A DNA stretch of 37,454 nt from Actinomycetota bacterium (GCA_017853815.1 JAFMIT010000003.1:1-37454); one strand, 5' to 3'; positions 6,014 through 29,942 are shown, counted from the stretch's first letter. The notes: generated by a model from the letters alone, not told the origin. Program-made: numbers and translations.

Positions 6014-8457
6014 GAACCAAGCAATCTGTTGTGTGACCACACGATGTCCGCTAAGCGCGCCTTCAGCGGCTCGAGCGAAACCGGTGCAGTGATGTGGAAG
6101 GTAGTGGATTCATTCGGCAGGAGAGCAACAAACTGCTTATCAACTCTTGACCCTTCAACCACAATCTCTGGTAACAGGCACAGCTCGTGGATGAAATGAT
6201 CTGAGGTGACCGTCACGGTCGCCGAATTGCCAGTGACCTCGATTACTGACTGCACACGCTGAGGCAAGACGCCTTCCGCAGGTTGCATGGAGGCTCTGCG
6301 TGCTGTGCGGATGCCGTCAGCATCCACACAAACGAACGTGAGATTGTCAGCTGCAGCGAGACCAGGCAAGAGCTCATGAGTATCAAAACGCTTGGCTGAG
6401 TACGGTGGAACTTTGAGATGAACCTTTGCTTGTTCAGCCACGTCACCAGCGGAGTTGATAAGCCATAGATCGACTGGCGTGTCCCATTCATCCGCGGTGT
6501 CGTTGATGAGAGTCAGCGGCATACCGAAATCTGGCCTCGTCAAAATAACTGCCCTCGGACGGTAGGCCTCTTGCATCGCGTACCACGCAAGTTTGCGATG
6601 ACCGGTGTAATCGAGAACTGCCCAGCTGATTGCTGGCCACATGTCGTTGAATTGCCAGAGGATGGTCCCCGAGCACCGTTCATACAGGCTTCTAAAATGC
6701 TTCAAACCAGTTTGCACCGCACGTGCCTGAAGTAGCTGTGCGGCGAAGTACCACGCATGACCTTCGACTGGTGGGGTCTTCCATTCCCGATGAAGTCCCG
6801 CTGAAATCTTGTCCATGCCATCAAACGCTTTTTGGTGGATAGCTAAGTCCGGATCGCGCGAATCAAGATTGTCCTTGCCGATTGCCCTCGTCAGCATTGG
6901 CCATGAACCTGGCCCGTTGAAACCAAACTCGGCGGCGAAAGCGGGTGAATATTCTTCGTAACGCTCATAGCCGAGTTCGTTCCAGACGTCCCAAATGTGA
7001 TTGGTACCTGACTTGAAACTGCGAACGTCGTCAGAGTGCGACGAAAACGGCGAACCTGGAATGTAGGGACGCGTGCGATCGAGCCGACCGAGTACACCAG
7101 GGATTGTCTTGCGGTAAAAACTATCTCCCCAAGGTCGACCACCGAGGGGCTCTTGCCAACCCCAGTACTGGAATCCTTCGATGCATTCGTTACCTCCACA
7201 CCAGATGACCAAACTTGGGTGAGATTGCAGACGACGAACAGCCTCTTCGACTTCCAGCTCGACTTCTTCAAACATTTCGCTGGTCTCTGGGTACGCGGCG
7301 CAAGCGAAGAGGAAGTCTTGCCACACAACAACGCCTTCGGCATCACACAAGTTGTAGAAGTCTTCTGACTCATAGATGCCACCGCCCCAGACACGAATAC
7401 CGGTAATACCGACTTCGAGCATGTCATCCAAGCGCTGGCGGTAGCGCGCTAGCGTCACGCGAGTTGGGAACGGATCGTCTGGAATCCAGTTAGCACCGCG
7501 AATCCAGAGGCGTTCACCATTTACTTTGATGGCGAAAAGTTGGTCTTCGCCGATATCAGATGTATCGAGCTCAACTTTTCGAAATCCAACTGAGCGAGTC
7601 AAACTGTCGAGGACGTCCTCTCCATCAATCAGCTCTACAACGCAGGTGTACAGCTTCTGATCTCCACGTCCACGCGGCCACCACAACTGCGCTTGCGGAA
7701 CCGGCAGCGAATCAATCGTTTCTGACGTTGCGCTACTTTCGTTGGTCGCCAAGGTGACATCGCCATCACGCAGACTTACGCGAACCTTCAGGCCATCAGT
7801 CGATCCGTCGATCTTGAACGAGCCAGAAAGTACTGGCGTGCCATCGTGAACAGATCCAGCTACACCAAGGTCGGAGAACTTCGCACGCGACCACGTGTGC
7901 AACTCAACCGGCTTCCAAAGTCCTGAACTGATTGTGATGGGACCCCAGTCCCAGCCGTAGCTGCATGCCATCTTTCGTTGGTAGTTGTACGGCATGTCAT
8001 AAGGCCGCGGATACAAACCAAGCTCAGCAACATGCTTTTCAGCATCAGGCAAAGGCGCCTGAATTCTCACTTCAACATCGACATCGCCCACGGCAATCTC
8101 CGAGGAGATATCTACTGCATGTGTGCGATGCATGTTTTTGACCGACAAACGCGTGACACCATTAATCAAAATGTCTGCGACCGTATCGATTCCTCGAAAA
8201 ACGAGTTGCACAACATCGTTTCCGGGTCGGTGGTTGATTGTCGTTCGGTACGTTACGTCAGTTCGCCAGAGCCACTGCTGATCTGCTTCCCGACCGTCGA
8301 TAGAGATATCGTCGATAAGACCCGCCGAGATCAGATCCGTGTGAACACATCCAGGGACTTGAGCCGCGAGAACGGGCGGTAACTCTGGAGCACCTGCATC
8401 TTCATGCGGGCGCAGTGAAATCGTCCAAGATGAAGTAAGTGGCTCGCGCAAAACCAT
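6010..8457 (-). CDS. Beta-mannosidase (GH2)
   Basis: VPGCVHTDL, RKMACSYGWDWGP, RGANWIPDD, RVWGGGIYE, WQDFLFAC, WCGGNE, AEFG, WQFND motifs. Confidence 0.92.
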   Translation of the reverse strand: MVLREPLTSSWTISLRPHEDAGAPELPPVLAAQVPGCVHTDLISAGLIDDISIDGREADQQWLWRTDVTYRTTINHRPGNDVVQLVFRGIDTVADILINGVTRLSVKNMHRTHAVDISSEIAVGDVDVEVRIQAPLPDAEKHVAELGLYPRPYDMPYNYQRKMACSYGWDWGPITISSGLWKPVELHTWSRAKFSDLGVAGSVHDGTPVLSGSFKIDGSTDGLKVRVSLRDGDVTLATNESSATSETIDSLPVPQAQLWWPRGRGDQKLYTCVVELIDGEDVLDSLTRSVGFRKVELDTSDIGEDQLFAIKVNGERLWIRGANWIPDDPFPTRVTLARYRQRLDDMLEVGITGIRVWGGGIYESEDFYNLCDAEGVVVWQDFLFACAAYPETSEMFEEVELEVEEAVRRLQSHPSLVIWCGGNECIEGFQYWGWQEPLGGRPWGDSFYRKTIPGVLGRLDRTRPYIPGSPFSSHSDDVRSFKSGTNHIWDVWNELGYERYEEYSPAFAAEFGFNGPGSWPMLTRAIGKDNLDSRDPDLAIHQKAFDGMDKISAGLHREWKTPPVEGHAWYFAAQLLQARAVQTGLKHFRSLYERCSGTILWQFNDMWPAISWAVLDYTGHRKLAWYAMQEAYRPRAVILTRPDFGMPLTLINDTADEWDTPVDLWLINSAGDVAEQAKVHLKVPPYSAKRFDTHELLPGLAAADNLTFVCVDADGIRTARRASMQPAEGVLPQRVQSVIEVTGNSATVTVTSDHFIHELCLLPEIVVEGSRVDKQFVALLPNESTTFHITAPVSLEPLKARLADIVWSHNRLLGS

Positions 8458-8498: not shown

Positions 8499-9404
8499 TT
8501 AAAGCGCCGCTAAGGCAGCGCCGATAAGGCCAGCCTCAGATTCAAGTTTGGCTGGTCGAATATCTAGTCCCGAGAGAAACTCAATTCCTTCGGTGCGATG
8601 TTTCAGAGCTCTGCGAAGTGGTTCCCAGTAAATGTCACCAGCGCGAGACACGCCTCCACCGATCACCACGAGGCTGACATCAACGGTCGCAGCGACGTTG
8701 ACGATTCCAACAGCCAGCGAATCTGCACCATGTGCGATTGCGGCAATCGCAATGGCATCGCCGGCGCGAGCAGCGTCAGCCAAATCCATAAAGTCATCAG
8801 AGTCAGAAACCCAGCCATTATTTTTGGCCTGACGAACCATGTGTGGTCCACTTGCATAGACCTCAACGCAGCCACGCCGACCGCAAGGGCAGAGTTCGCC
8901 ATCAATCACGATGGTTGAATGACCAAAATAGCCAGCGTTGCCGGATTCGCCGACTTTCAGCTCACCGTCGAGCACAAGTCCGCCACCAATTCCAGTGGAC
9001 ACCACCATGCCGATCATGTTGCTGCTGCCAGCACCAGCGCCATAATGAAATTCAGCGTTTGTCATTGCAATGGCATCGCCATGCATCTTGACGCGCTCGC
9101 ACTCAAAAGTGCTGCGCAGAGAGTCAACCAAGGGAAAGTCTCGCCACACAGAAATGTTGACTGGGCTGACGGTTCCCTTGTCTACGTTGATAGGACCCGC
9201 CGAGCCAATGCCGATTCCCGTCATGGTGCCCGTTGTTGCACCAACGACGGATTTTGCTTCGACAACCAGTCGGTCCCAGAGCTCGTGTGCAGAGTTAGCG
9301 ACTGAAGAAATGCTCGAGGACTCAAGAAGTCTTCCGGAGAAATCCATTGATCCGATAGCGATCTTTGTTCCGCCAACATCAATACCAAGGATGTATTCGC
9401 TCAT
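8499..9404 (-). CDS. ROK family sugar kinase (gluco/mannokinase)
   Basis: GIDVGGTK, STGIGGG, GH...CPCGRRGCVE zinc motif, IGGGVS, AGLIGAA; no N-terminal HTH. Confidence 0.9.
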   Translation of the reverse strand: MSEYILGIDVGGTKIAIGSMDFSGRLLESSSISSVANSAHELWDRLVVEAKSVVGATTGTMTGIGIGSAGPINVDKGTVSPVNISVWRDFPLVDSLRSTFECERVKMHGDAIAMTNAEFHYGAGAGSSNMIGMVVSTGIGGGLVLDGELKVGESGNAGYFGHSTIVIDGELCPCGRRGCVEVYASGPHMVRQAKNNGWVSDSDDFMDLADAARAGDAIAIAAIAHGADSLAVGIVNVAATVDVSLVVIGGGVSRAGDIYWEPLRRALKHRTEGIEFLSGLDIRPAKLESEAGLIGAALAAL

Positions 9405-10417
9405 GCCTCGCCGCCCTCCTTAACCCGAAGCTGCATCACCGTGGTGACAAAGTTCTCTCCCGCCGGGTTAGCAAATCGATCCAACAAAACTCCTGCAGCT
9501 ATGCGGCCGATGGTCTGTGGATCGTGATCAAGAGTTGTCACCCCCAAGAGCGATGCTTGTGGAAAATCATCAAAGCTAATGATGGGAATTTCGCGTCCAG
9601 CTGCGCGCAGGCCACGGAGTGCACCCTGAGCAATCAAGTCGTTCGCCGCAATGATTCCGTCCACACCAATTTGGGACTTAACGAGATCGGTGATTCTTAA
9701 AAATGCGTCGTTTTCGTTGTGCACGCCAGAAATGACTTGGCAATCTGATTTCGATAATCCCAAACGAGCGAGTGCGCTGTTAAAGCCTGCAATTCGCTGC
9801 CCGGCTGTCCAAATGGATTCGTGGTCTGCGATCAAAGCGATGCGCTTCAACCCCTTGTTGGCAAGGTATTTCACACATTCGTACATACCTCCGTTGTTAT
9901 CGACAAGAACATTGTCGGCATCAAAGAAGGGGGCTGGGCGGTCAACAAAGACAAAGGAGAACCCTCTGCGACGCTCAGCATGAAGATATGAATAGTCCTT
10001 GCCTGAAGGCACCACCAACAGCCCACGAACGCGACGGCCGAGCAGCGAATCGATGAGCGCACTCTCACGCGCTCCGTCATCTCTTGCAGTTGCAATAATC
10101 AAGTCGTGCCCAGCTTCGGTCAGACGCTCTTCAGCTCCTGAGGCAAGACCTGCGTAAAACGGGTTAAAAAGGTCAGAAATGATCATGCCCACGAGGTTGG
10201 ACATCGGGCCACCGCGCAATTCGCGAGCGATGGCGTTTGTCCGGTACCCCAACAGATTGGCAGCCTCACGCACTTTGGCTGCGGTTTTTGGCGTGACATT
10301 GGCCTGATCGTTGACCACGCGAGAGGCAGTTTTGATGCTCACTCCGGCCACGGCGGCAACATCAGCTAGCGTCGGGTGAGCGACGATTCCAGTCTGGTCT
10401 GTAGGCGGCGTGGACAA
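9401..10417 (-). CDS. LacI family transcriptional regulator
   Basis: PTLADVAAVAGVSIKTASRVVN HTH, LGYRTNAIAREL hinge, sugar-binding domain (FVDR, SFDD). Confidence 0.95.
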   Translation of the reverse strand: MSTPPTDQTGIVAHPTLADVAAVAGVSIKTASRVVNDQANVTPKTAAKVREAANLLGYRTNAIARELRGGPMSNLVGMIISDLFNPFYAGLASGAEERLTEAGHDLIIATARDDGARESALIDSLLGRRVRGLLVVPSGKDYSYLHAERRRGFSFVFVDRPAPFFDADNVLVDNNGGMYECVKYLANKGLKRIALIADHESIWTAGQRIAGFNSALARLGLSKSDCQVISGVHNENDAFLRITDLVKSQIGVDGIIAANDLIAQGALRGLRAAGREIPIISFDDFPQASLLGVTTLDHDPQTIGRIAAGVLLDRFANPAGENFVTTVMQLRVKEGGEA

Positions 10418-10572: not shown

Positions 10573-10639
10573 GATAGCCTTGGGGAGCCGTCATCGATAC
10601 CCAATACAGGCTTGGAGCTCCGTCTTGAGCACTCACTAC

Positions 10640-12796
10640 ATGGACAATAGTCATCGCGTCTACCCGCACATTGAGGGGCTGCGCGCAGTGGCAATCCTGG
10701 CGGTGGTAGCTCATCACATCGGACTGCTTCCTCGGGGCTTTCTGGGGGTAGACGCCTTTTTCGTCATTTCTGGCTTTCTCATCACCAGCCTGCTCATCCA
10801 AGACTTCGCCGTTGCCGGCCGAATCCGCCTGCTGACGTTCTACGCAAGACGTGCCCGCCGAATATTGCCGCTAGCAGGTCTCGTCATTGTGACCACTTTG
10901 CTGCTTGTCGCCTCGCAGGGAAATGAAGTCAGTACGCAGGCAGCGGCCAGAGAAGGTGTCTCCGCCTCGATATTCATGGCCAACTTTCATTACCTCGATC
11001 TCAGCACGGACTATTTCTCAACTATTGAGCACCCCGTCTTGCGAAACTTCTGGTCGCTAGCAGTCGAAGAGCAGTTCTACCTCGTTTGGCCCGCGTTGCT
11101 TCTCGCACTAGGGCTGGTGGCCAAGCGGAATTGGAGCAAGTGGGCAGTCGTGCTGGCGTCGGTCGTCACAGTTGCTTCACTGGCTGTGGGTCTCATCGTC
11201 GGTAATGCCAATCCAAACGCTGCGTATTTCATGCCTCACACAAGAGCGTACGAGCTCGGGATTGGAGCGCTACTGGCATTCCTTTCACAAAACGACCGCT
11301 TGCCGCGCCTACCAACTCTGTGGCGAACGTTTGTCTGCATCCTGCTTCTCGCAACTTTTCTCGTCACCACCCCGACGTACAACCCCGCGCTCCAGGCCCT
11401 GCCGACTGTCTTAATCACCGCCCTTGTGATTGCTCTGGGCCTGAAAGACTCGGTCATCGTCTTCGAGAGTCGAGTGCTCACCTACATCGGAAATCGGTCT
11501 TACGGCTGGTACCTGTGGCATTGGCCATTGCTCGTGATTTTTGGTTTAAGCACAGAAACGCCAGCGTCCCTTACCGAAATGTTCCTGATTGTTCTTGGCG
11601 CATTCGTTCTCAGTGATCTGGCCTATCGAATCTTCGAAAATCCAATTCGCCGCAGTGCCGCACTGAACAACAGTCCTCATAAAGCAATCTCGGTTGGACT
11701 TGCGTTTGCTCTCACTGCGCTTTCTATCAGCTTGATATTTACTCAGGACCGCTCCGTCGCCGCATCGCCCGAGCCCGAGCCAACCGCATCATCGAGCAGT
11801 CCCAGTGCACCTGAACCAACGCCGTCACCCACAGAAAGTGCCACTGAAAGCCCTACCGCTTCACCATCATCGACCGTGGCAACAACACCTGCTGCTCCAG
11901 CGGATCCAAAAGTGCAGGAACTTGTAGGAAAACTATCTGGCACTTCGAGCGCGGCTTTGTTGGCGCAGGTACAAAGCGTAATTCAAGGTGCTATCGATGC
12001 CGAAGCTTTCCCCTACAAAACGCTGCCTCGACTCGGAGACATTGTGCGAGATCGCAGTGCGTGGTTTGAGAATGGATGTTCGGTTGACTTCCCCAACACA
12101 GACGTTCCGGAGTGCGTCGGCGGCGATGACACTGCCGCGCGCACGCTCGTGCTCTACGGCGACAGTCATGCCACTATGTGGATGCCAGCGTTTGATCGCA
12201 TCGGCAAAGCCGAAGGCTGGAAGGTAGTGCTATTCGCAAAGTTGGCATGTCCACTGGTCGAAGAAAACGTGTGGAGCTACCAGCTGAACAAGCCATTCAA
12301 CGAATGTCAGGAGTGGCAAGCACAAGTTCTTCCCCGCATCGAAGCTCTCGCTCCAGAAATGATTGTCGTCACGGATCAATGGAAACCAGCAGTCAATAAC
12401 GGTGCGATTGATGACGCAGGCGTGGTGGCGCTATGGCAGCGAGCATTTCAGCCAGCGCTCGCCCGCCTATCCACCTACACCGATAACTTGGTAGTGCTTG
12501 GAAATCTTCCAAACATGAGTTCCGATCCGGCAACCTGCCTATCAACCCGCGGCACCGACCCATGGATCTGCACCACTTTGAGAGACGATGCAGAGTTCAG
12601 TGCTGTGCAAAAGATTGAAAAGAATGCAGCGCTCGCAGTCAAAGCGAAGTACGTCAATGTGATGCAATGGGCGTGCACCGTGCAATTCTGTCCAACGGTA
12701 ATCGGTGGACGAGTCGCCTACTTCGATCAGTGGCATTTCACCGACACATATGTTGAGTGGCTCGAGCCCTTGCTTAAAGTATCCGTCGGACTGTAG
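10640..12796 (+). CDS. Acyltransferase-3 / SGNH fusion O-acyltransferase (OafA/OatA-like)
   Basis: IEGLRAVA, GFLGVDAFFVISGFLIT, RRARRILP, WSLAVEEQFY, SYGWYLWHWP; P/T/S-rich linker; SGNH domain with GDSH and DQWH. ATG 10640 preferred as start. Confidence 0.9.
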   Translation: MDNSHRVYPHIEGLRAVAILAVVAHHIGLLPRGFLGVDAFFVISGFLITSLLIQDFAVAGRIRLLTFYARRARRILPLAGLVIVTTLLLVASQGNEVSTQAAAREGVSASIFMANFHYLDLSTDYFSTIEHPVLRNFWSLAVEEQFYLVWPALLLALGLVAKRNWSKWAVVLASVVTVASLAVGLIVGNANPNAAYFMPHTRAYELGIGALLAFLSQNDRLPRLPTLWRTFVCILLLATFLVTTPTYNPALQALPTVLITALVIALGLKDSVIVFESRVLTYIGNRSYGWYLWHWPLLVIFGLSTETPASLTEMFLIVLGAFVLSDLAYRIFENPIRRSAALNNSPHKAISVGLAFALTALSISLIFTQDRSVAASPEPEPTASSSSPSAPEPTPSPTESATESPTASPSSTVATTPAAPADPKVQELVGKLSGTSSAALLAQVQSVIQGAIDAEAFPYKTLPRLGDIVRDRSAWFENGCSVDFPNTDVPECVGGDDTAARTLVLYGDSHATMWMPAFDRIGKAEGWKVVLFAKLACPLVEENVWSYQLNKPFNECQEWQAQVLPRIEALAPEMIVVTDQWKPAVNNGAIDDAGVVALWQRAFQPALARLSTYTDNLVVLGNLPNMSSDPATCLSTRGTDPWICTTLRDDAEFSAVQKIEKNAALAVKAKYVNVMQWACTVQFCPTVIGGRVAYFDQWHFTDTYVEWLEPLLKVSVGL

Positions 12797-12799
12797 TTC

Positions 12800-15340
12800 T
12801 TACGCAACCACTAAACGGACTGCAATATCGCCCGCAAACTTTGGTGTCGTGACTTTTACTTTGAGTCCTACAGATCTCACAAGACTCGTCTTGAGTATTG
12901 CACCAGTCTGAACATTGATGAGCTGAACCTTGTATCTGCCCGCAGCAGCAACAGGCACCATGAAACTCGCTGCAAGAGCAGTTGGAACTCCGACGGCTCG
13001 AGGCTTGCGATTTTCTTTGAGAGCTTTGATCAGTTCTGCGGTCAACAACTTGATGCGTGCGCTTCGACTGTAATCAGAATGACGTACCCACACCAAGGTG
13101 CGACCGGAGCCAACCAACGCCTGCGTAATGGTGTGCTTGGGGCCAGCAATTTTTCTCGGGGTCATTGATGGCAGGTCCGCACCCGCAATCAAAACGCTCA
13201 AACTCTTCGTAGCACCCCACAGCTTGAGTGGATCGATGTACTCGTCCCACCACCAGTACATAGCTGGAGAACCAAAGCCTGCGAAAACTGCTGCCCATTG
13301 ACTGTTGTGCATGTGGAGGCCGGTCTTGTCGAGCGTTGGATCCTCGCCCGCTGCACCTGATCCCATTTCTGCAACGATGGTTGGCTTGCCTGGCAAAACA
13401 GTTTTCATCGATGGCGCAAGATTGCCCAAAGTCGCAATGGGATCAGCGTCGTTGTACACGTGAATTGAGGCAAAATCGACGTTGGACCAATCACGAAGAC
13501 TTCCACCCGAAGACCAGGAGGTGGTGGTGGGGTGGTTGTACGCATCAAGAGTTCTCAACAATTGATCCGACTCACGAATCCAGGATTGAAGTTCACTTGC
13601 GCCCATGGGCGTGAAGTCAACTTCGTTCCACCATTCCCACGATACAAGTGACGACTGCGCTCCCCAGCGGGCAACGACGTAGCGAAGCCGCTGTTCCCAG
13701 AACTTCTTGGCGTCGGCGGACGTCACGAACTCACCAGGACTATTTAGTGGTCCGCCATTGAGTTTGTTGTAAGGGTTATCGCGCCATTCGCTGTTGGTGG
13801 TCTCACTAAAGGCACCGTGATTGAGCAGCACCAAATTGATGTTGATGCCGTACTTAGCACCAAGCGCAAAGACTTGGTCCAGCTTCTTGGCACGATCTTG
13901 CCGCTTGGAATAGTCACCAAGACCAGTGTCTTTCCATTCGATTCCAAATCCCCAGGATGCCATCCACACACGAGCCCAATTAGCTCCATTGCGGGCGGCT
14001 TGCTTGAACCACTTGTCGTAGTCGGCGAGCGAATTTTGTTTTGACCAAGCGATGTTGTACCCGATTGGTGTGAACGGCTTTCCGCCACGGCTAAATCCTG
14101 TGCCGTTCACTTGAATCTGCGGAACCGATGCCTCAGCAAAAGTGAGACTTAATGGCTGAACCACTTTGGATAGATCAAGCGATCGGATGACACCACTGAC
14201 TCGCAGCGTCCACTGTCCAGCTTCGGTCGGTTTGAATCGAACGCGGAACACACCTTCGCCTCGTGGGAGTGCACCCGTGTAATCCTGGAACCAGAAGAAG
14301 GGACTGCGCACGATTTGCTTCGAAGGACCTTCGAATTCGGCCCAGATATTCGCTTGGTCGATTGAGAATGGATTCGCTACCGACGGAGTTCCCAGCAAAT
14401 CAATCTCTGCAGGAGTTTTCGAGTCACCAGCAGAAACCATGCGAGTAACAATGTCCGTAGGAACAGGGTCACAGGCAGCGGCATCAAAGATATCTCCGAC
14501 TCCTGCGACAGCCTGGAAATCAATGCTCTGAGTGTGGGGCACCATCAATGGTGCAGTTTGGCCACCGTACTCCACCAGTGCATACGCAAGCGGTTCGATA
14601 TCGCGAGCGTCATTCCACACGCCGGTGTTCGCCTTCATTTCAAGTGAGTTCTCACCACCCGCAAAAAAGTTGTTGGGCTCCCCGGCGGCCCAATTGGTAA
14701 ACGTGAAAAGTTGCCCGGCTTCAGGCCCGGCCATCCAGCGCCATTCGCCATCTTTTGCGGCATCACTTCCACCGAGCCAACCGCCGACGCCAAGCGTCGA
14801 GAGAACCTCGACTTCGCTCGCCGATGTCACGGTTGCCAAGTAGCCAGACATTCCGTTGAACGTGGACGCCAACGCTGTGCTGCTTGCTGCCTGCCAATTC
14901 GCATAGGTCCCAGCAATCGCTGCATAGAAGTGGCCATTGCTCGAAAGGTAAGAAGCACCAGCTGGCGCAATCATGACCGTGACGTTGCCTGGGCCGGCAC
15001 TGGCACCCCGCACTCTCAACGATGCCAGTGCCGCGGCGACGTCGGCGGCGTCGCCTTCGAACGCAATGCGTCCAGAACCCTTGGTCGAAGGACTTGACCA
15101 CCCAGCGACCGCATCAAGCCGATTCCGCACTGCAACGGCACCTATTCCGTTTGCGATCTCGATGGTTGCGCGGATTCGGGTAATGCCAACAGGAATATCG
15201 CCGATTACAACGCCTGGTAAGGCATCACAGGTCGTCGTTGAGACTTCAGGTGTCACAGCGGCACTCGGTACAGCCAGACATGAAACGCCCATCGCAAAAG
15301 TGACGAGAAGAGTCTTCAGGACTTTTGAAAAGCGATTCAC
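12800..15340 (-). CDS. Secreted multidomain glycoside hydrolase: C-type lectin + DUF5060-like Ig domain + clan GH-A (GH5-like) barrel
   Basis: GTG 15340 with RBS AGGA and a signal peptide (MNRFSK...VPSAA). CTL motifs NGHFY, YLATVTS, WLGGSD, WRW, GEPNN, WND. DUF5060-like NPF...FRVRFKP. Catalytic WARVWM, WEWWNE, VAEMG. Basic C-terminal tail. Confidence 0.8.
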   Translation of the reverse strand: MNRFSKVLKTLLVTFAMGVSCLAVPSAAVTPEVSTTTCDALPGVVIGDIPVGITRIRATIEIANGIGAVAVRNRLDAVAGWSSPSTKGSGRIAFEGDAADVAAALASLRVRGASAGPGNVTVMIAPAGASYLSSNGHFYAAIAGTYANWQAASSTALASTFNGMSGYLATVTSASEVEVLSTLGVGGWLGGSDAAKDGEWRWMAGPEAGQLFTFTNWAAGEPNNFFAGGENSLEMKANTGVWNDARDIEPLAYALVEYGGQTAPLMVPHTQSIDFQAVAGVGDIFDAAACDPVPTDIVTRMVSAGDSKTPAEIDLLGTPSVANPFSIDQANIWAEFEGPSKQIVRSPFFWFQDYTGALPRGEGVFRVRFKPTEAGQWTLRVSGVIRSLDLSKVVQPLSLTFAEASVPQIQVNGTGFSRGGKPFTPIGYNIAWSKQNSLADYDKWFKQAARNGANWARVWMASWGFGIEWKDTGLGDYSKRQDRAKKLDQVFALGAKYGININLVLLNHGAFSETTNSEWRDNPYNKLNGGPLNSPGEFVTSADAKKFWEQRLRYVVARWGAQSSLVSWEWWNEVDFTPMGASELQSWIRESDQLLRTLDAYNHPTTTSWSSGGSLRDWSNVDFASIHVYNDADPIATLGNLAPSMKTVLPGKPTIVAEMGSGAAGEDPTLDKTGLHMHNSQWAAVFAGFGSPAMYWWWDEYIDPLKLWGATKSLSVLIAGADLPSMTPRKIAGPKHTITQALVGSGRTLVWVRHSDYSRSARIKLLTAELIKALKENRKPRAVGVPTALAASFMVPVAAAGRYKVQLINVQTGAILKTSLVRSVGLKVKVTTPKFAGDIAVRLVVA

Positions 15341-15380
15341 GATATTCCTGTCAGTGGATCCGAGCCTAGAAGTTTGGCGA

Positions 15381-16349
15381 TTACTTGATGCCCGAAAGCG
15401 CAATACCTCGAATGAAGTGCTTCTGAGCAACCAAGAAAAGCAAAACGGTCGGGATAGAGGCGAGAAGGCTGGCGCCCATGATGATGCCTTGCATACCGAT
15501 ATTGCCGGCACCGTTGTTTCGCAACATCGAAAGCGCCACTGGCAGGTTCCACATCTCAGGGCTGTTGGCAATAATCATCGGCCACAAGAAGTTATTCCAT
15601 TCGCCGATTGAAGCGAAGATCATCATGGCAATCATTGCTGGCTTAAGGAGCGGCAGAATGATTCGCCACCAAATCGTGAACTCACTGGCCCGGTCAATGC
15701 GAGCAGATTCGACGAGCTCATCCGGAATAGATGAAAGGTACTGAACGAGGAAGAAGACAATGAACGCTTTGGGAAGTGCCGGAATGATGTAAGCCCAGTA
15801 GGTATCGAGCCAGTTCAGATTACTCATCGTTAAGAAGTTGGGAATGATGCCGACCTGCCATGGAACCATCATCGAACCAATAATGGTCAAGTAAATCAGG
15901 CGCTTGCCCTTCATTCGATGCTTGCTAACAACGTATGCAGCGAGAGATGAGATGAGCATCGTGGCTACGGTGATGGTGACCACAATAAAGAGGCTGTTGA
16001 GAACGTAGTGGAAGAAGCCAAACTGGACTTCTTCAAAGCGTTGGAACAGACCGCGTTGATTGCTCGGATCAGTTGAGTTGTTGTTGACGTTTCCGAAGTT
16101 GGTATTGAAGTAGTTCACCAACAGCCATTTGTTCGGTACGACCGTGGGTGGAACTTTTTGAAGCTCTTGAACTGACTTAAAGGACGATGTAATCATCCAG
16201 TAGTACGGAGCAACCATGATGATGGTCGTGAGGTAGAGAGGAATTCTTCGGAGCTTGCTCCATTTGCTTCGCTTTTCGAAAGGACTCGAAAAGCCGCCAG
16301 CATCGAAAGTGTCTTTCGGTACAAACTCTTCTTGATCAATGATGGTCAT
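15381..16349 (-). CDS. Carbohydrate ABC transporter permease (MalG-type)
   Basis: EAA loop IPDELVESARID, WNNFLWP, QKHFIRGI. Confidence 0.93.
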   Translation of the reverse strand: MTIIDQEEFVPKDTFDAGGFSSPFEKRSKWSKLRRIPLYLTTIIMVAPYYWMITSSFKSVQELQKVPPTVVPNKWLLVNYFNTNFGNVNNNSTDPSNQRGLFQRFEEVQFGFFHYVLNSLFIVVTITVATMLISSLAAYVVSKHRMKGKRLIYLTIIGSMMVPWQVGIIPNFLTMSNLNWLDTYWAYIIPALPKAFIVFFLVQYLSSIPDELVESARIDRASEFTIWWRIILPLLKPAMIAMMIFASIGEWNNFLWPMIIANSPEMWNLPVALSMLRNNGAGNIGMQGIIMGASLLASIPTVLLFLVAQKHFIRGIALSGIK

Positions 16350-17320
16350 CGCAAATCCTCAAAACTCTTAGACAGCTTCAGGTTGATCAAACTGATGATG
16401 AAAATAATGCCGAAAAGAACCCATGCGATTGCCGACGCGTAGCCCAATCGGAAGTGAATGAATCCCTGGTCATACAAATACGGGACCAACATAAGCGCCA
16501 TATCCTGAAGGCCACCGACAGAGCCAACGCTGGTTGGGAAAAGAAGATAGACACCTTCGAAAATCTGGAAGGCGCCGATGATGCTTGTGATTCCGACGTA
16601 AGTCATCACGGGCTTGAGTAGTGGCAGTGTGATGTACCGGAAACGCTGGCGCGGATTTGCGCCATCAATCATCGCGGCTTCGTAGTAGTAGGTCGGAATG
16701 GAGTTGATGCCGGCAAGGAACAAGATCATGCCGTAGCCCGCCCCACCCCAGACAGACATGAGCACAAGAATCGGGACTGCGAGTGCGGGGGTAGCAAGCC
16801 ATTCGACTGGGGAGATTCCCATTGCAGCCAACACGCCGTTGAGCAGACCAACGCCATCGCCACGAAACACCCAGCCCCACACGAGGACTGTGGCAATGGA
16901 TGACGTCACAGAAGGTAAGAAGAAGACAACGCGCAAGATGCGATTCGATTTGGTGTCAGCTTGCAAAGCAATGGCCAACATCAACGAGGCAATAATTGTC
17001 AAAGAGACTGCGCCAACGACATAGTACGAGGTATTGAGAAGTGCCTTATGAAAACGATCATCTTCAAAGAAGAGTCGGTAGTAATTGCCAAATCGAACTG
17101 AGCCGCAGGGGCTGAGTTCTTCGTCGCAAATGGCGTTGTAACGCATGAAGGAGAGCCGGAAGCTTGCAAAGATGGGGTAGATGCTGAACGCAACGAACAA
17201 AAGAACGAAGGGAGCGAGCATCAGGTATGAACTCAGGCCAGAGTCGCTCCATTTGTAGAAGCCTTTGCGACGCTGCCGGGTGGGCTCTAAAGCGGTCACG
17301 GTTGGTGTCGACGTAGACAA
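16346..17320 (-). CDS. Carbohydrate ABC transporter permease (MalF-type)
   Basis: YYEAAMIDGA, ITLPLLKP, LGYASAIAW; ATGA overlap with the next gene. Confidence 0.93.
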   Translation of the reverse strand: MSTSTPTVTALEPTRQRRKGFYKWSDSGLSSYLMLAPFVLLFVAFSIYPIFASFRLSFMRYNAICDEELSPCGSVRFGNYYRLFFEDDRFHKALLNTSYYVVGAVSLTIIASLMLAIALQADTKSNRILRVVFFLPSVTSSIATVLVWGWVFRGDGVGLLNGVLAAMGISPVEWLATPALAVPILVLMSVWGGAGYGMILFLAGINSIPTYYYEAAMIDGANPRQRFRYITLPLLKPVMTYVGITSIIGAFQIFEGVYLLFPTSVGSVGGLQDMALMLVPYLYDQGFIHFRLGYASAIAWVLFGIIFIISLINLKLSKSFEDLR

Positions 17321-17381
17321 CCCAACTCACTCTCCTCGTTGTGGCCTCGTGGTAAGAATTTTTCGTGAGGGTCTTCCACCA

Positions 17382-17414
17382 CGTGAGGGACGGGTCTGGG
17401 ACCCGCCCCTCACG
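17382..17414 (-). terminator. Intercistronic stem-loop after the solute-binding protein gene
   Basis: Minus strand CGTGAGGGGCGGGTC-CCA-GACCCGTCCCTCACG: 15-bp stem with one G-U (an A-C mismatch on the plus strand). Confidence 0.65.
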
Positions 17415-17472
17415 CGTTCTTTGGAAGAAACGACTTGGCCTCGGTGAGGCATTCAGTCGAATGTGTGCGTAA

Positions 17473-18717
17473 TTACTGCCGAGACTTCATGGCAGCTGCA
17501 GCGGCGTCAAGAGCGGCCTGAGCCGACTTGCCGTCGAAGAGGAAGGCTTGGATTTCCTTCGTCACATCTGCCTGGCTGTCTTCCCAACCAATGCAGTTCG
17601 GTGGACCCTGAGCCGTTGCGAGCTGGCTCTTGATGGTCTTGAGAACTGAGCTTGGGTAAGAAGCGATTGAGTCTGCGAACTTGATGACTGGCGACAAGAA
17701 GATCGAGTTCTCAACGGTACCAACAGAGTTCATTGCTGTAACAGTGTTGACGTCGTAGAGAGAACGGATGAACTTGGCAGCAAGTGCCTTCTTGGTCGAG
17801 TACTTCATAACGGAGATACCACGACCACCGATGAAGGAAACGCTCTTTGCACCAGGAGCTGCAGGAACAGGAATTGCATTCCAGTTCTTGTAGTCGCGGT
17901 AGTAGGTGTAGAGCGAGCTAGCCTGGAAGTTGCCAGAGAAGCCGATACCGTACTTCTTGTTCTTCAGGTTGTCGTTCATAGACCAGTCAGCAACACCGGG
18001 CTTTGGAGCACCGAAATCTGAATACAACTTCTTGTACTGATTCAGAGCTGAAACACCCTTTGAGTTGTTGATCGTGACTTTGCACTTTGCATCGTACAAA
18101 GAACCACCTGATGAGTACAGCCAGTTGAACCAGCCGAGCCAGTCAGCATTGCCCCACTCGTTGTAGACAGGAACCTGGATGCCTGCATCCTTCAATTTCT
18201 GGGCAGCAGCATTGAATTCTGCAATGGTCTTAGGTGCAGCAATACCGTTGTCAGCGAAGACGGTCTTGTCATAGAACATCATCATGAGGGTAAGGTCGTA
18301 AGGAACTGCATAGACCTTGCTCGAGCCGTAGGCAATGAGTGAGCGATAGATCTGTGATGGAACCTTTGGCTGCACGAAGCTAGCTACACCGAGTGGACGA
18401 AGGTCAGCGAGTGCGCCCTTCTGGCCAAGTGAGATACCCCATGACAAACCACCGGTGATGACGTCTGGACCCTTGCGAGCTGCTGCAGCTGCAAGAACCT
18501 TTGCATAGCCGTCGCCCCAGCCGATTGTTTGGACAGTTACCTTGACGCCAGGATTTTGGCGCATGAATACCTTGGCAGCCGCTTGGGTCACCTTGGTAGA
18601 AGCATCATCGCCTGTGGCCCATACGACCAAGTTCTTGGTTGCGGCTGATGCTGGTGGAGCCATCAGCACACCGACGGCCATCATCAATGTGATGGCAATC
18701 GCACCGAGTCGCTTCAT
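17473..18717 (-). CDS. Sugar ABC transporter solute-binding protein (family 1), no lipobox
   Basis: GPDV, KVYAVPYD, FYDKTVF, GG.GISV motifs; RBS GGAGGA; signal peptide ends ASA|A with no Cys. Confidence 0.9.
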   Translation of the reverse strand: MKRLGAIAITLMMAVGVLMAPPASAATKNLVVWATGDDASTKVTQAAAKVFMRQNPGVKVTVQTIGWGDGYAKVLAAAAARKGPDVITGGLSWGISLGQKGALADLRPLGVASFVQPKVPSQIYRSLIAYGSSKVYAVPYDLTLMMMFYDKTVFADNGIAAPKTIAEFNAAAQKLKDAGIQVPVYNEWGNADWLGWFNWLYSSGGSLYDAKCKVTINNSKGVSALNQYKKLYSDFGAPKPGVADWSMNDNLKNKKYGIGFSGNFQASSLYTYYRDYKNWNAIPVPAAPGAKSVSFIGGRGISVMKYSTKKALAAKFIRSLYDVNTVTAMNSVGTVENSIFLSPVIKFADSIASYPSSVLKTIKSQLATAQGPPNCIGWEDSQADVTKEIQAFLFDGKSAQAALDAAAAAMKSRQ

Positions 18718-18785
18718 ATTTCCTCCAATTCAGAAACGAACATAGACGGCGACTATCGCCGCGGTGGCGGAACCATCGCAGCAAA

Positions 18786-18799
18786 TGTCAACGTTGTCA
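18786..18799. promoter_or_regulatory. LacI-type operator upstream of the ABC operon
   Basis: TGTCAACGTTGTCA, 13/14 match; overlaps minus-strand TTGACA (18800-18795), ~70 nt before the ATG. Confidence 0.75.
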
Positions 18800-18896
18800 A
18801 TAACTTTTTTCGGCGGTTTGCAGATGTCTTGCGGGACATTTTTGAGCGTGAATCGGACAAGTTGGGGACACAATCCCCATACTGCCTAGGGGGCTG

Positions 18897-19442
18897 CTAA
18901 GCCAACTTTCCGTCGAACTGAACTTGTTCTTTGTCGGTGATCGCAATCGTCACCGAAATCTTGGCGCCGGCAGTGCCTGGGCACGCCATTCCCCAGGGAA
19001 ATTCGACGGTGTCACCGGCTGCAAGGGGTTCGAAAGGCACGCCCATCAGGTTCTGGGACTCATCAAAGATATCCGCGCAGACGGCCTGCGTGTCTCCATC
19101 AATGTCGGTCTTCACGATGGCGACGCTAAACAAATCGATGGACTTCTTGGTGCCGTTTGTGATCGAAATGGTGAAAAGCTGTGGCAGTGCACCCTCTTCA
19201 AGGGCGCCCAAATCTGAAGGCTCGAAGGACTTCAGTTCCGTAGCCTGCACGCTGATGCCACCCTTGGTCTTCACGGGTTCGCCACCAAAGGTAGATGCGA
19301 GGGTGTCGAGCGGGTCTTCCTTCACCACGCCTGCGCCCACATCGCCATAGTCGTCCATGGGGACGAGTGGCCCACCAGTGAACAGGCCGTAAGCGAGCAT
19401 GACGGCAATTCCCAAGGGCACGAGGATGTAGCGCTTTTTCAC
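18897..19442 (-). CDS. Hypothetical protein with N-terminal membrane anchor and acidic beta-rich extracellular domain
   Basis: KKRYILVPLGIAVMLAYGLFTGG followed by an acidic domain with two Cys. GTG 19442 preferred because the track's TTG lies inside the -35/operator. Confidence 0.65.
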   Translation of the reverse strand: MKKRYILVPLGIAVMLAYGLFTGGPLVPMDDYGDVGAGVVKEDPLDTLASTFGGEPVKTKGGISVQATELKSFEPSDLGALEEGALPQLFTISITNGTKKSIDLFSVAIVKTDIDGDTQAVCADIFDESQNLMGVPFEPLAAGDTVEFPWGMACPGTAGAKISVTIAITDKEQVQFDGKLA

Positions 19443-19463
19443 GCCGCGAACTTTGGCAGCCTT

Positions 19464-19477
19464 GTCCAACGTTGTCA
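19464..19477. promoter_or_regulatory. LacI-type operator overlapping a leaderless promoter
   Basis: GTCCAACGTTGTCA, 11/14 match; minus strand TTGACA-N17-CAAAGT-N7-GTG(19442). Confidence 0.6.
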
Positions 19478-19515
19478 ATCTTCAAGTTGCAACGATTTGC
19501 GGACCCGAATCGAGC

Positions 19516-20523
19516 CTAAACCCGGCTGTTGACCATTAATTCGAGCAGCTGACGGTCAATCTGGAAGCCCTCAATCGTTTCGTAACTGGTGTTCGGGCGA
19601 CCGTGATTGGCGATTCCAAAGGATCCTTCGAACTCCCACATTGAGTAGCCCCAGTTCGACTTCTTGAAGATTTCAAACAAGTCGTTAAACCACGCCAACG
19701 CAACCTGGTTGTCGGTGTAGCGGTAACAGCCAAACTCACCAATGTGAATCGGACGACCCTGGGCTTGGACGTCGCGCCACGGTCCATAGAACTCCCACAG
19801 CGAGTCTCGGTCCCAATGAACACCGTTGTAGTCGCAAGGATAGGTCGGAACTGGCATACCAATGCTGCCGTCCCACCATTCGGCTTTGTAATGCGACACC
19901 AACATCGGCTGGTAGCCGCGGCCGCTATGCACCGCGTCGAGATCTGCGAGCTCTGGCATAGCCAAGTGGCCGCCAGCGAGGCCGTTGATCACGATGGTGC
20001 GGGCCGGATCTACAGCCCGAATGGCGTAATGGACTGACCTGATGACCTCTGCGTGAATCTCGCGAGTGAAGCCACGCTGGCCAAGATCTGGTGGTTCGTT
20101 GACTAGATCGAAACTCAGAAGATCTGGGTGCTGTCCTTTGAAGTATTCGGCTGCGCGTGTCCATAGGGTCTCGAAAGCAACTTGGGCTACTGAATCGCTC
20201 CACAGGTTGGTGGCTTCAGTTTCCCAGCCAGTAATCACGTAACCCGGCGCGCGGTGCAGGTTGATGCTGATATGGATTCCTCGATCTACTGCAGCATCCA
20301 CATAGGCCTGGATGGTGTCAAGAAAACGATCATGGATTCTCATCTGACCATCAGGCTGAAGAGCATCCATCCAGAAGCGATAGTCAATGGGAATGCGCAA
20401 GAAATTGAAACCGTATTGCGCCATGAAATCGAGCATGCGAGGGTTGAAAGGCGCAGGTGTTTCACGATTGTGTGAACTAAAAGCCCACTGTGCATTGAAT
20501 CCATAACCGAGATTCATATTCAT
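19516..20523 (-). CDS. Glycoside hydrolase family 5, cytoplasmic
   Basis: GFNFLRIPIDY, INLHRAPGY, FDLVNEP (acid/base), HIGEFG (nucleophile). ATG 20523 with RBS AAGGAG and ATGA overlap. Confidence 0.9.
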   Translation of the reverse strand: MNMNLGYGFNAQWAFSSHNRETPAPFNPRMLDFMAQYGFNFLRIPIDYRFWMDALQPDGQMRIHDRFLDTIQAYVDAAVDRGIHISINLHRAPGYVITGWETEATNLWSDSVAQVAFETLWTRAAEYFKGQHPDLLSFDLVNEPPDLGQRGFTREIHAEVIRSVHYAIRAVDPARTIVINGLAGGHLAMPELADLDAVHSGRGYQPMLVSHYKAEWWDGSIGMPVPTYPCDYNGVHWDRDSLWEFYGPWRDVQAQGRPIHIGEFGCYRYTDNQVALAWFNDLFEIFKKSNWGYSMWEFEGSFGIANHGRPNTSYETIEGFQIDRQLLELMVNSRV

Positions 20524-21491
20524 TCTCCTTTGAGAAGCAGTGAGCGCAACCATTGCGCCTGCTTAAGCTGTTGATCTACTCCGCCACCCTCATGGGTTGA
20601 GTACGGCCACACCTCAATCGACTTTTCTCCCTGCCAATGATTAAACGCAGCGAAGACAGTGTCCGGCGGGCAAATCGGATCATGCATACCGACTGAAAAG
20701 AGTGCGTGAGCATGTGCTCTGGCGGCGAAATTCATCCCGTCGAAAAATGCAATTGTGCCGAGCGTCTGCTCAACTGCATCGCGACGACCACGCAGGTAAG
20801 TGACGATTTCTTGATACGGATAACCGTCAGTCATTTCTATCGCTCGCGCAATGTGACTCAGAAAAGGTACGTCTGGCATCGCTGCATACACTTCCGGGCA
20901 GAGACCAGCAGCCGCAATAGCAATGCCTCCTCCCTGACTTCCGCCACCGACGATGATGCGAGCGGGATCGACGTTGGAGAGTTTCTGAGCTGCACGCACA
21001 AAGCAGACTGCATCTGTGTAGACGCGGCGATAAAAGTAGGTCTCAGGCGACTCAACACCATGAGTCATGAATCCTGGCGAGTGATTGCCTACTGGGTATG
21101 AGCCATCAGGTGTGTCTCCGCGCCGATGCCCGCTACCTTGTCCACGAGTGTCCATGACGAGTACCGCATATCCGCATGAGGGCCAAAAAAGCCACTCGTG
21201 AGGCAGGCCGCGACCGCCACCATATCCTTCGAAAATAACCACGCAGGGAACCCTCTTGTTGAGTTCCTTCGGTGTGATAAACCAGCCTTTGATGGGATCG
21301 TTGTTATAACCAGCAATCGTGATATCGAAAACGTCAACAGTTTCTAGCGGCCCGTCCCAACGCGTGAGAACTGGCTCTGATTCGTTGACGTAACGGTCAA
21401 GAGTGCTGGCCCAGAACGCATCGAAATCCGGTGCGACTGGAAGTGCGGGTCGATACGTTCGCAGTTCCTCAAGAGATTTTCCGAGCAGCAT
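20520..21491 (-). CDS. Acetylxylan esterase / cephalosporin-C deacetylase (CE7)
   Basis: DFDAFW, GYGGGRG, DTRGQG, GGSQGG, DPICPP, HE. Confidence 0.92.
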   Translation of the reverse strand: MLLGKSLEELRTYRPALPVAPDFDAFWASTLDRYVNESEPVLTRWDGPLETVDVFDITIAGYNNDPIKGWFITPKELNKRVPCVVIFEGYGGGRGLPHEWLFWPSCGYAVLVMDTRGQGSGHRRGDTPDGSYPVGNHSPGFMTHGVESPETYFYRRVYTDAVCFVRAAQKLSNVDPARIIVGGGSQGGGIAIAAAGLCPEVYAAMPDVPFLSHIARAIEMTDGYPYQEIVTYLRGRRDAVEQTLGTIAFFDGMNFAARAHAHALFSVGMHDPICPPDTVFAAFNHWQGEKSIEVWPYSTHEGGGVDQQLKQAQWLRSLLLKGE

Positions 21492-29819: not shown

Positions 29820-29942
29820 GTTCTTCCTTTCGCAACAGCGATGATGTAACTCGGTGTGCGAACAGGAATGTGCGCACGCTCGAGAAGACGTTTGTTTGAG
29901 CGCGCACACGCTCGGGGACTTGCGGTTGCCTGAGAGAGAGGC

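Follow-up and report, generated by a model that had tools for sequence, protein, structure and literature searches.

A predicted secreted GH5-type β-mannanase carrying a cysteine-free C-type lectin-like domain in a putative actinobacterial mannan-utilisation locus

The subject of this study is a gene on the minus strand of a 37,454-nucleotide (nt) stretch of DNA from an Actinomycetota bacterium (GCA_017853815.1, JAFMIT010000003.1:1-37454; this whole stretch is called the window below). The gene (12800..15340, stop codon at 12800-12802) is predicted to encode P0001, an 846-residue secreted modular β-mannanase of the glycoside hydrolase family 5 (GH5) type, in which a domain of the C-type lectin-like kind (CTLD) precedes the catalytic part; an identical protein is on record as P0002, and the 846-residue protein matched no NCBIfam family. 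The minus-strand open reading frame (ORF) spans 12800..15571 and overlaps the 3' end of an upstream permease gene, and the plausible start is the GTG at 15340, which has AGGA 7 nt to its 5' side and the permease stop codon 40 nt before it. Residues 1-28 (15257..15340), read by eye, look like a Sec signal peptide, with a basic start, a hydrophobic core and the sequence PSAA; residues 1-27 have a predicted local distance difference test score (pLDDT) below 50 in the N-terminal model. There follow a β-sandwich (residues ~29-125, 14966..15256), the CTLD (residues ~126-262, 14555..14965), a return strand and linker (14408..14554), a DUF5060 β-sandwich (residues 312-382, 14195..14407), a (β/α)8 catalytic barrel (residues ~409-720, 13181..14116) and a C-terminal β-sandwich (residues 721-846, 12803..13180), all on the minus strand. 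The whole protein contains three Cys residues, C21 in the signal-peptide-like segment, C38 and C290.

The CTLD, of a kind known above all from animal immune lectins, was recognised by several searches. A phmmer search against the PDB matched 101 distinct sequences at E ≤ 1; among the 60 matches listed, two are ManDH5, a mannanase described below, and the name or our own recognition marks the remaining 58 as C-type lectin domains, the best lectin being langerin (E 2.6e-7, residues 122-246), with CD23 at E 2.6e-7. A profile of seven orthologues matched 95 distinct PDB sequences at E ≤ 0.001, and its 60 listed matches were likewise headed by two ManDH5 sequences and otherwise made up of 58 C-type lectin domains, recognised in the same way, including CD23 (E 1e-11), the macrophage mannose receptor (4e-10) and MBP-C (1.9e-8). 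Each of the seven orthologues matched Pfam Lectin_C with an E-value of at most 0.1 (best 3e-8), and a precomputed table lists PF00059 for P0008. In the phmmer alignment, the EPN motif of langerin, the Glu that follows it and the WND motif are in register with E221-P222-N223 (14672..14680), E230 (14651..14653) and W242-N243-D244 (14609..14617), respectively, with one extra residue between EPN and Glu in the present domain; S232, two residues past E230, sits opposite a langerin Cys. The arrangement is that of a Ca2+ site 2, namely EPN or QPD, a Glu 6-7 residues on, and WND. The domain thus keeps five side chains, E221, N223, E230, N243 and D244, equivalent to those that hold the Ca2+ of the sugar site in animal lectins. 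All site residues are invariant in the seven orthologues, which are only 39-56% identical over their first 310 residues. The animal mannose-type CTLDs (langerin, CD23, DC-SIGN, MBP-A/C and the macrophage mannose receptor) share with it the predicted fold and the EPN/Glu/WND register, and also a WIGL-like core motif, here WLGG, and the conserved Trp of helix 1.

An AlphaFold (AF2) model of residues 1-310, built from a seven-sequence alignment, had a mean pLDDT of 70.8 and was confident at residues 30-180 and 250-280. When the model was compared with 48,161 chains by VIA-align, which is independent of Foldseek, all but three of the 50 rows listed were C-type lectin or lectin-like domains by title or by our recognition (Z 6.7-9.1, 90-133 aligned residues), with Z 7-9.1 to SP-A, CL-K1, codakine and langerin. 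Foldseek gave weaker agreement, with target-normalised template modelling (TM) scores (TMt) of 0.55-0.67 to CD23, DC-SIGN, SP-D and MBP-A; the 310-residue model had no PDB match at E ≤ 0.001 (best CTLD 3e-3), and VIA-align was the clearer of the two. The CTL fold consists of two helices, two antiparallel sheets and a region of long loops. Sequence, profile and predicted fold agree that the domain belongs to the CTLD superfamily with the full EPN/E/WND sugar-site motif kept, although the loop that bears the motif, residues 215-245, is modelled with low confidence. Animal CTLDs have two or three disulfides, whereas this domain has none; residues 122-265 are devoid of Cys, so that the two conserved bridges are missing. 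Because of this, and because the related bacterial segments are mostly Cys-free, the domain is placed in a bacterial Cys-free branch of the CTLD superfamily and not among the animal-type carbohydrate-recognition domains. It further differs from the animal CTLDs in being embedded in a bacterial β-sandwich and fused to an enzyme, where it is a predicted binder.

The first ~295 residues are read here as a movable cassette composed of the small β-sandwich and the inserted CTLD. The sandwich (pLDDT 79-93), which matched no Pfam family, resembled residues 149-254 of human B4GALNT1 in VIA-align (Z 9.5, root-mean-square deviation 2.2, 98 aligned residues) and also cohesin modules (Z 6.7-6.8). The aligned ranges run from model residue 28 to residue 278 or 281 and take in the strand after the lectin (residues 269-278); from these ranges, rather than from coordinates, the lectin appears to be inserted before the last strand of the sandwich. 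C38, in the sandwich, and C290, in the linker, are invariant in the seven orthologues and possibly form a bridge between the cassette ends. An ESM Atlas structural search aligned residues 28-292 with Lectin_C clusters of autotransporters, Bacteroidota and phages at TM 0.74-0.77, matches that serve as leads only; when viral models (BFVD) were searched with Foldseek, nothing matched at E ≤ 0.001, so that the phage relatives hinted at by the Atlas were not confirmed there. In the same bacterial family as the host, proteins of genomes G082 (1906 residues) and G003 (846 residues) carry the cassette right after the signal peptide and end in membrane anchors. In the manner of a carbohydrate-binding module (CBM), the cassette is a discretely folded non-catalytic module in a predicted carbohydrate-active enzyme, separate in the model and absent from orthologues of ~590 residues.

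DUF5060 (PF16586) matched residues 312-382 at 38.1 bits (E 1.8e-9), above the gathering cut-off of 27.2, and was also matched by all seven orthologues; a literature search on DUF5060 returned nothing relevant. The AF2 model of residues 296-846, built from 43 homologues, had a pLDDT of 94, and its best Foldseek matches were 9gmj, 9gpe, 9gpa, 9gpg and 9gpc (E 8e-45 to 3e-43, query-normalised TM score (TMq) 0.83-0.84), followed only at E 4e-18 by the next match. Residues 314-715 matched 9gmj/9gpc at E 3.9e-50 by phmmer and at E 1.9e-75 by profile. The titles of these entries, released in 2025, name ManDH5, "a beta-D-mannanase of GH5 family from Dictyoglomus", and relate to mannotetraose, mannobiose and mannopentaose, including an E303Q mutant with mannotetraose; no paper on ManDH5 was found in the literature, and its activity is known from the entry titles. 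Such homology to the barrel places the catalytic part in GH5 and clan GH-A. The hallmarks of GH5 are an Asn-Glu acid/base pair, a nucleophile Glu and conserved Arg, His, His, Tyr and Trp residues, and the counterparts R457, H508, N572, E573, H627, Y629, E658 and W696/W698 do not vary in any of the 43 aligned homologues. E573 (13622..13624; WWNEVD) is the predicted acid/base, as N572-E573 aligns with ManDH5 N302-E303, where 9gmj and 9gpc differ (WNEVD/WNQVD) at what is counted as chain residue 303. E658 (13367..13369; VAEMG) aligns with the Glu of ManDH5 LVGEFG and is the predicted nucleophile, a role that we assign from general knowledge of GH5. Pfam Cellulase (PF00150) did not match this protein at E ≤ 1 and was matched by the more distant homologues P0037 and P0038 (E 5.7e-8 and 7.8e-4); since the group thus lies at the edge of the Pfam GH5 model, the GH5 label rests on the PDB entry titles. 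For the C-terminal β-sandwich, whose strands are seen in the model, no Pfam family was matched, and no anchor, sortase or lipobox motif was recognised on reading the sequence. The Foldseek alignments to ManDH5 run over 585-591 columns including gaps, for a 551-residue model and a 561-564-residue chain, and the tail domain is thus probably covered by them. ManDH5 of Dictyoglomus thermophilum (9gmj, 9gpa, 9gpc, 9gpe and 9gpg) accordingly shares the DUF5060 sandwich, the barrel, the C-terminal sandwich and both Glu residues. In contrast, the 568-residue chain of ManDH5 lacks the N-terminal β-sandwich and CTLD cassette, and its host is a thermophile, whereas the present host is a mesophilic freshwater actinobacterium.

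The fusion is real. In run X2, an independent DNA contig covers 13859-15123 and shows 4 differences. Aquatic metagenomes, among them those of freshwater and estuaries, contain near-identical DNA; at least part of the window is present in 20 runs, which belong to 13 studies, and nine of the 20 contain at least half of the sampled words, one of these being possibly the source. Independent contigs vary most in the return-strand and linker stretch 14408..14554. In the independent freshwater run X6, differences cluster at 14360-14477, where a linker joins the cassette to DUF5060 (17 on one 337-nt contig), and none falls in the EPN or WND codons. A metagenome scan with a single N-terminal sequence returned nothing, and an alignment-based scan returned L087 as the one contig with an orthologue, together with 58 further CTLD loci; on L087 an orthologue of the P0003 type follows the same two permease genes. 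Over L087:122-2903, compared with 12800-17320 of the window, the two permeases are 89-91% identical, and the enzyme is 62% identical overall and 55% identical over its first 310 residues. The permeases being so much closer than the enzyme, the secreted enzyme diverges much faster than its operon neighbours; relaxed constraint, diversifying selection and recombination are candidate causes. In addition, 151-nt contigs in two RNA-library runs, from two studies, match 13207-13357, 15015-15164, 15024-15174 and 15200-15350 without a difference; they cover 4 of 30 bins per run, the uncovered parts being uninformative, and are compatible with expression.

The complete architecture is shared by six other 90%-identity clusters, P0003-P0008 (842-847 residues, 46-63% identical). 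On the other hand, orthologues of the Candidatus Planktophila type (P0009-P0035, loci L001-L018) have ~590 residues, with the same core (42-49% identical) in the same operon, and run from the signal peptide straight into DUF5060 without the first ~295 residues; none of 80 retained genome loci aligned to query residues before 251. In a FastTree phylogeny of the catalytic part (n = 43; the near-duplicates P0013, P0015-P0020 and P0027 were excluded, as were P0002, whose sequence equals the query, and P0043, which has the lectin only), six fusion proteins formed a clade with a support of 0.96, and P0008 grouped with the short forms at a support of only 0.59, a value that gives little backing to any one order of cassette gain and loss. 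In the more distant homologues P0037, P0038 and P0039, the N-terminal place of the cassette is taken by a PF21253 module ("Mannanase, galactose-binding domain-like"). Within the bacterial family of the source genome (G000; 1.73 Mb, 194 contigs, 88% complete), the enzyme was found at E ≤ 1e-10 in none of 92 other genomes, many of which are 56-90% complete, and in none of 12 other species of the same genus; the lectin part alone was found in four of the 92. The lineage may have acquired the whole mannan locus recently.

The direct family of the domain is that of bacterial and phage Lectin_C (PF00059) domains. A search of residues 28-292 against 1.84 billion cluster representatives matched 9016 proteins at E ≤ 1e-3, of which 2274 reach E ≤ 1e-10 and 85 reach E ≤ 1e-30; giant proteins with up to 27 matched stretches are frequent among the matches. 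P0122, with 6674 residues, has 27 stretches that match the cassette, and other giants of 2000-6000 residues have 5-14 copies. Among 144 newly listed proteins, EPN followed by WND occurs in 109 (262 occurrences) and QPD followed by WND in 33. An earlier search had yielded 109 lectin segments in 77 of 121 proteins, fusion proteins included, of which 84 have EPN, 9 have QPD and 16 have another motif or none; WND is present in 90, and 67 are Cys-free. When the 51 of the 144 listed matches with at most 1130 residues were taken as a sample, Lectin_C was matched at E ≤ 1e-5 in all 51 and a glycoside hydrolase family in none; their CTLD partners include dockerin (4), flagellin, NlpC/P60, amidase, RTX, type IX secretion system (T9SS) and PEP-CTERM signals. 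In the flagellins P0163, P0069 and P0120, Lectin_C lies between Flagellin_N and Flagellin_C, a domain order that suggests lectin-displaying flagellar filaments. P0136, P0144, P0220 and P0265 combine Lectin_C with a type I dockerin, one of them also with an amidase, and resemble cellulosome-type components. The bacterial and phage Lectin_C domains of giant surface proteins, T9SS cargo, autotransporters, dockerin proteins and flagellins thus mostly have EPN/WND, are often Cys-free and include recurrences of the sandwich and CTLD unit; compared with bacterial adhesins that carry tandem copies, the present protein has a single CTLD copy on a secreted enzyme. In the literature searched, which is thin in subscription journals, a glycoside hydrolase with a bacterial CTLD was nowhere described. 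The "bacterial C-type lectin" named in PMC8092209 is LecB, which is unrelated.

These results bear on a first-pass annotation of the gene, which had been made from the DNA alone. Its positions for EPN and WND and the Cys-free state of the domain proved exact when recalculated by script, the downstream Glu that it mentioned is E230, and its proposals of a CTLD and of a fusion to DUF5060 and a clan GH-A barrel with both catalytic Glu residues agree with the data above. The fusion is rare, as only six other protein clusters combine CTLD, DUF5060 and a glycoside hydrolase. A Cys-free CTLD with EPN turns out to be ordinary in bacteria (67 of 109 segments Cys-free; 9016 clusters), and the catalytic part, which the annotation had assigned to a poorly characterised GH-A group, has the GH5 β-mannanase ManDH5 as its closest solved relative.

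The genes around the enzyme form a sugar-utilisation operon. Directly upstream of the enzyme gene on the minus strand, two permeases (15381-16349 and 16346-17320; both Pfam BPD_transp_1) and a solute-binding protein (17473-18717; Pfam SBP_bac_1) constitute an ATP-binding cassette (ABC) sugar importer, whose gene order is the same in the Planktophila loci and in L087; the nearest solved relatives of the solute-binding protein are of the maltose/acarbose type, a weak (E 2e-18) and uninformative match. The genes for the solute-binding protein and a GH5 are separated by a 193-residue ORF (18897-19478, minus strand) that matched no Pfam family and is kept at the same position in 11 Planktophila-type loci at 26-33% identity. 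The GH5 (19516-20553, minus strand) matched 3w0k, a "bifunctional endomannanase/endoglucanase", at E 4.4e-110 and has upstream of it the CE7-type acetyl esterase AXE1 (20520-21491, minus strand; Pfam E 8.6e-101); an ABC exporter and a phosphomannose isomerase lie farther upstream. Downstream of the enzyme gene, also on the minus strand, are a LacI regulator (9401-10417; Pfam), a ROK kinase (8499-9404; Pfam), a GH2 β-mannosidase (6010-8457; Pfam, and 5n6u β-mannosidase at E 2.1e-115) and a GH28 (4619-6040; Pfam) that is exo-polygalacturonase-like at E 1e-23 to 4e-27. A gene for an AT3 and SGNH acyltransferase (10580-12796) is on the plus strand, convergent with the enzyme gene with 3 nt between the stop codons. 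Among 84 related loci, 11-14 of the Planktophila type keep essentially this order, that is, ABC exporter, AXE1, GH5, small gene, solute-binding protein, two permeases, enzyme, LacI, ROK, GH2 and GH28. The AT3-SGNH gene lies between the enzyme and LacI in the window, and in the Planktophila loci its counterpart is found past GH28, at the far end; given this difference in position, the locus has been rearranged here. Elsewhere in the window, a second minus-strand ORF of 846 residues (27369-29909), whose equal length is coincidental, matched Cadherin-like, Big_1 and bMG3 families and is probably another surface protein.

The first-pass annotation had also given the enzyme gene a candidate -10 element of its own. 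The hexamer TAGGCT is indeed present at 15363-15368 on the minus strand, within the 40-nt spacer 15341..15380 (minus strand) that also holds the AGGA before GTG, but a private promoter was not supported, as a consensus scan of the minus strand from 12500 to 19000 found no promoter-like site, actinobacterial promoter types being poorly covered by such a scan. The gap between permease and enzyme genes is 40 nt here and 23 nt in L087, and the short gap suggests co-transcription with the importer as the likelier arrangement. A link of the enzyme to mannan, which had been proposed at the same time, is strengthened by the ManDH5 homology and by the GH2 β-mannosidase and Man5B-like GH5 of the locus. 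The gene had been considered the best candidate for an undescribed system; what was found is a domain fusion in an ordinary sugar-utilisation operon.

Based on these features, we infer secretion, mannanase activity, Ca2+ and sugar binding, and the kind of ligand; on balance, with odds that we judge somewhat better than even, the protein is a secreted endo-β-mannanase of the ManDH5 type in which the N-terminal cassette serves as a lectin-type binding module that depends on Ca2+. In the mannan/glucomannan operon, the enzyme would be the sole bearer of an export signal, as judged by eye from its own N-terminus only, and would probably cut the polymer outside the cell. The oligosaccharides could then be taken up by the adjacent ABC importer, and the Man5B-like GH5, the GH2 β-mannosidase, the CE7 esterase and the ROK kinase could complete the breakdown inside the cell. 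EPN sites of C-type lectins bind free equatorial 3- and 4-hydroxyl groups, and the lectin may hold the enzyme on glycans that offer them, i.e., mannose, glucose and N-acetylglucosamine (GlcNAc), either at non-reducing mannan chain ends or in the surrounding particle or cell-wall matrix, which would raise the local enzyme concentration. A role as a binding module is argued for by the invariance of the site at 39-56% identity, by the PF21253 module at the same position in distant homologues and by the occurrence of the cassette as the distal head of anchored proteins, the far end of such surface proteins being the position expected of a ligand-binding head; the dockerins in 4 of the 51 sampled CTLD proteins are counted in its favour as well.

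Several observations weigh against this reading. The curated Pfam threshold was missed by the domain, as Lectin_C (PF00059) matched residues 163-249 at 16.6 bits (E 0.013) against a gathering score of 22.6; because this sequence on its own fails the threshold, CTLD membership rests on sequence similarity together with the predicted fold. The pLDDT of loop 215-245 is below 50, so that the predicted geometry of the site is of low confidence. The EPN motif had been put forward as a clue to mannan targeting, and the site is complete, but EPN is the default of the bacterial family (84 of 109 segments; 109 of 144 proteins) and, as its majority state, gives no pointer to mannan. Furthermore, in β-1,4-mannan only the non-reducing end residue has free 3- and 4-hydroxyl groups; internal residues lack a free 4-hydroxyl, which limits a classical EPN site to chain ends, and chain ends or other glycans with mannose, glucose or GlcNAc are therefore likelier ligands than the mannan backbone. 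The Planktophila orthologues do without the cassette, which catalysis thus does not require. With ManDH5 the enzyme shares only about 23-30% identity, and since GH5 is also polyspecific, the substrate assignment rests in part on gene context. The RNA-library contigs are no proof of transcription, and the literature search found no binding or activity data for this protein and no measured ligand for this type of bacterial CTLD.

The same evidence has to be weighed for other functions. The tail has no Pfam family and no anchor, sortase or lipobox motif on reading, and the lectin might instead bind glycans of the producer's own envelope, e.g., mannose-rich lipoglycans or wall polymers, and so keep an anchorless enzyme on a small planktonic cell and its products close by. 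Envelopes generally show the terminal mannose, glucose and GlcNAc that EPN sites favour, and the small genome (1.73 Mb) and the occurrence in open-water metagenomes are those of a setting where product loss matters; however, in related genomes the cassette sits at the membrane-distal end of proteins that are already anchored, where foreign targets fit better than self, and the Planktophila orthologues lack both the cassette and an obvious anchor. We consider such surface retention unlikely. About equally improbable, in our judgement, is a CTLD that binds no sugar at all and serves as a structural or spacer module, or binds a non-carbohydrate ligand, with the acidic residues holding structural Ca2+ only. 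Many CTLDs bind proteins, ice or minerals, the matches here include type II antifreeze protein, ovocleidin and struthiocalcin, and both the loop model and the Lectin_C score leave room for this; yet non-sugar CTLDs usually lack the EPN/QPD and WND set, the five ligand residues are invariant across the divergent orthologues, and the domain sits on a carbohydrate-active enzyme whose relatives carry a mannanase-associated binding domain.

The catalytic domain, for its part, could act on a polysaccharide other than β-mannan, such as a β-glucan or a mixed or decorated glycan, with the lectin reading its glucose or GlcNAc termini. The polyspecificity of GH5 would allow it, the neighbouring GH5 has a bifunctional mannanase/glucanase as its best solved relative, the locus includes a GH28, and the solute-binding protein is weakly of the maltose/acarbose type (E 2e-18). 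The closest solved relative by far is nevertheless a mannanase, with the next structural match only at E 4e-18, and β-mannosidase and phosphomannose isomerase are both encoded in the locus. We consider a substrate other than β-mannan quite improbable.

A lectin-bearing secreted mannanase, the reading favoured here, follows the logic of modular mannanases, including P0037-P0039, which have a signal peptide, a binding module, DUF5060 and a GH5 barrel; compared with those that carry PF21253, the module here is a CTLD. The CTLD as the module is what appears to be new, both parts and modular mannanases with binding modules being already known, and the CTLD fold is not known to be among the CBM families of CAZy. 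More tentatively, and with rather less confidence than the function itself, this could be the first bacterial disulfide-free CTLD that uses an EPN/WND Ca2+ site as the CBM of a polysaccharide-degrading enzyme, and hence a new CBM family for non-reducing mannose or glucose ends and a first handle on the ligands of bacterial and phage Lectin_C domains.

The understanding of mannan utilisation is left unchanged by the finding. One streamlined planktonic actinobacterial lineage gives its only exported mannanase a lectin head and Planktophila does not, a difference that may reflect the use of particle-attached versus dissolved substrate. Animal-type lectin domains in which the Ca2+/sugar site is complete abound in the surface proteins of bacteria and phages, and the enzyme is a small, soluble, single-copy example of them, for which the partner and the operon suggest mannan or glucomannan ends, mannose and glucose as ligands. 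It could thereby decide if bacterial CTLDs are genuine lectins that depend on Ca2+, and could bring a further fold to the CBMs. Because the attached mannanase and the operon name a likely ligand, the protein would, if the proposal is true, offer a first handle on the thousands of uncharacterised Lectin_C domains of bacteria and phages.

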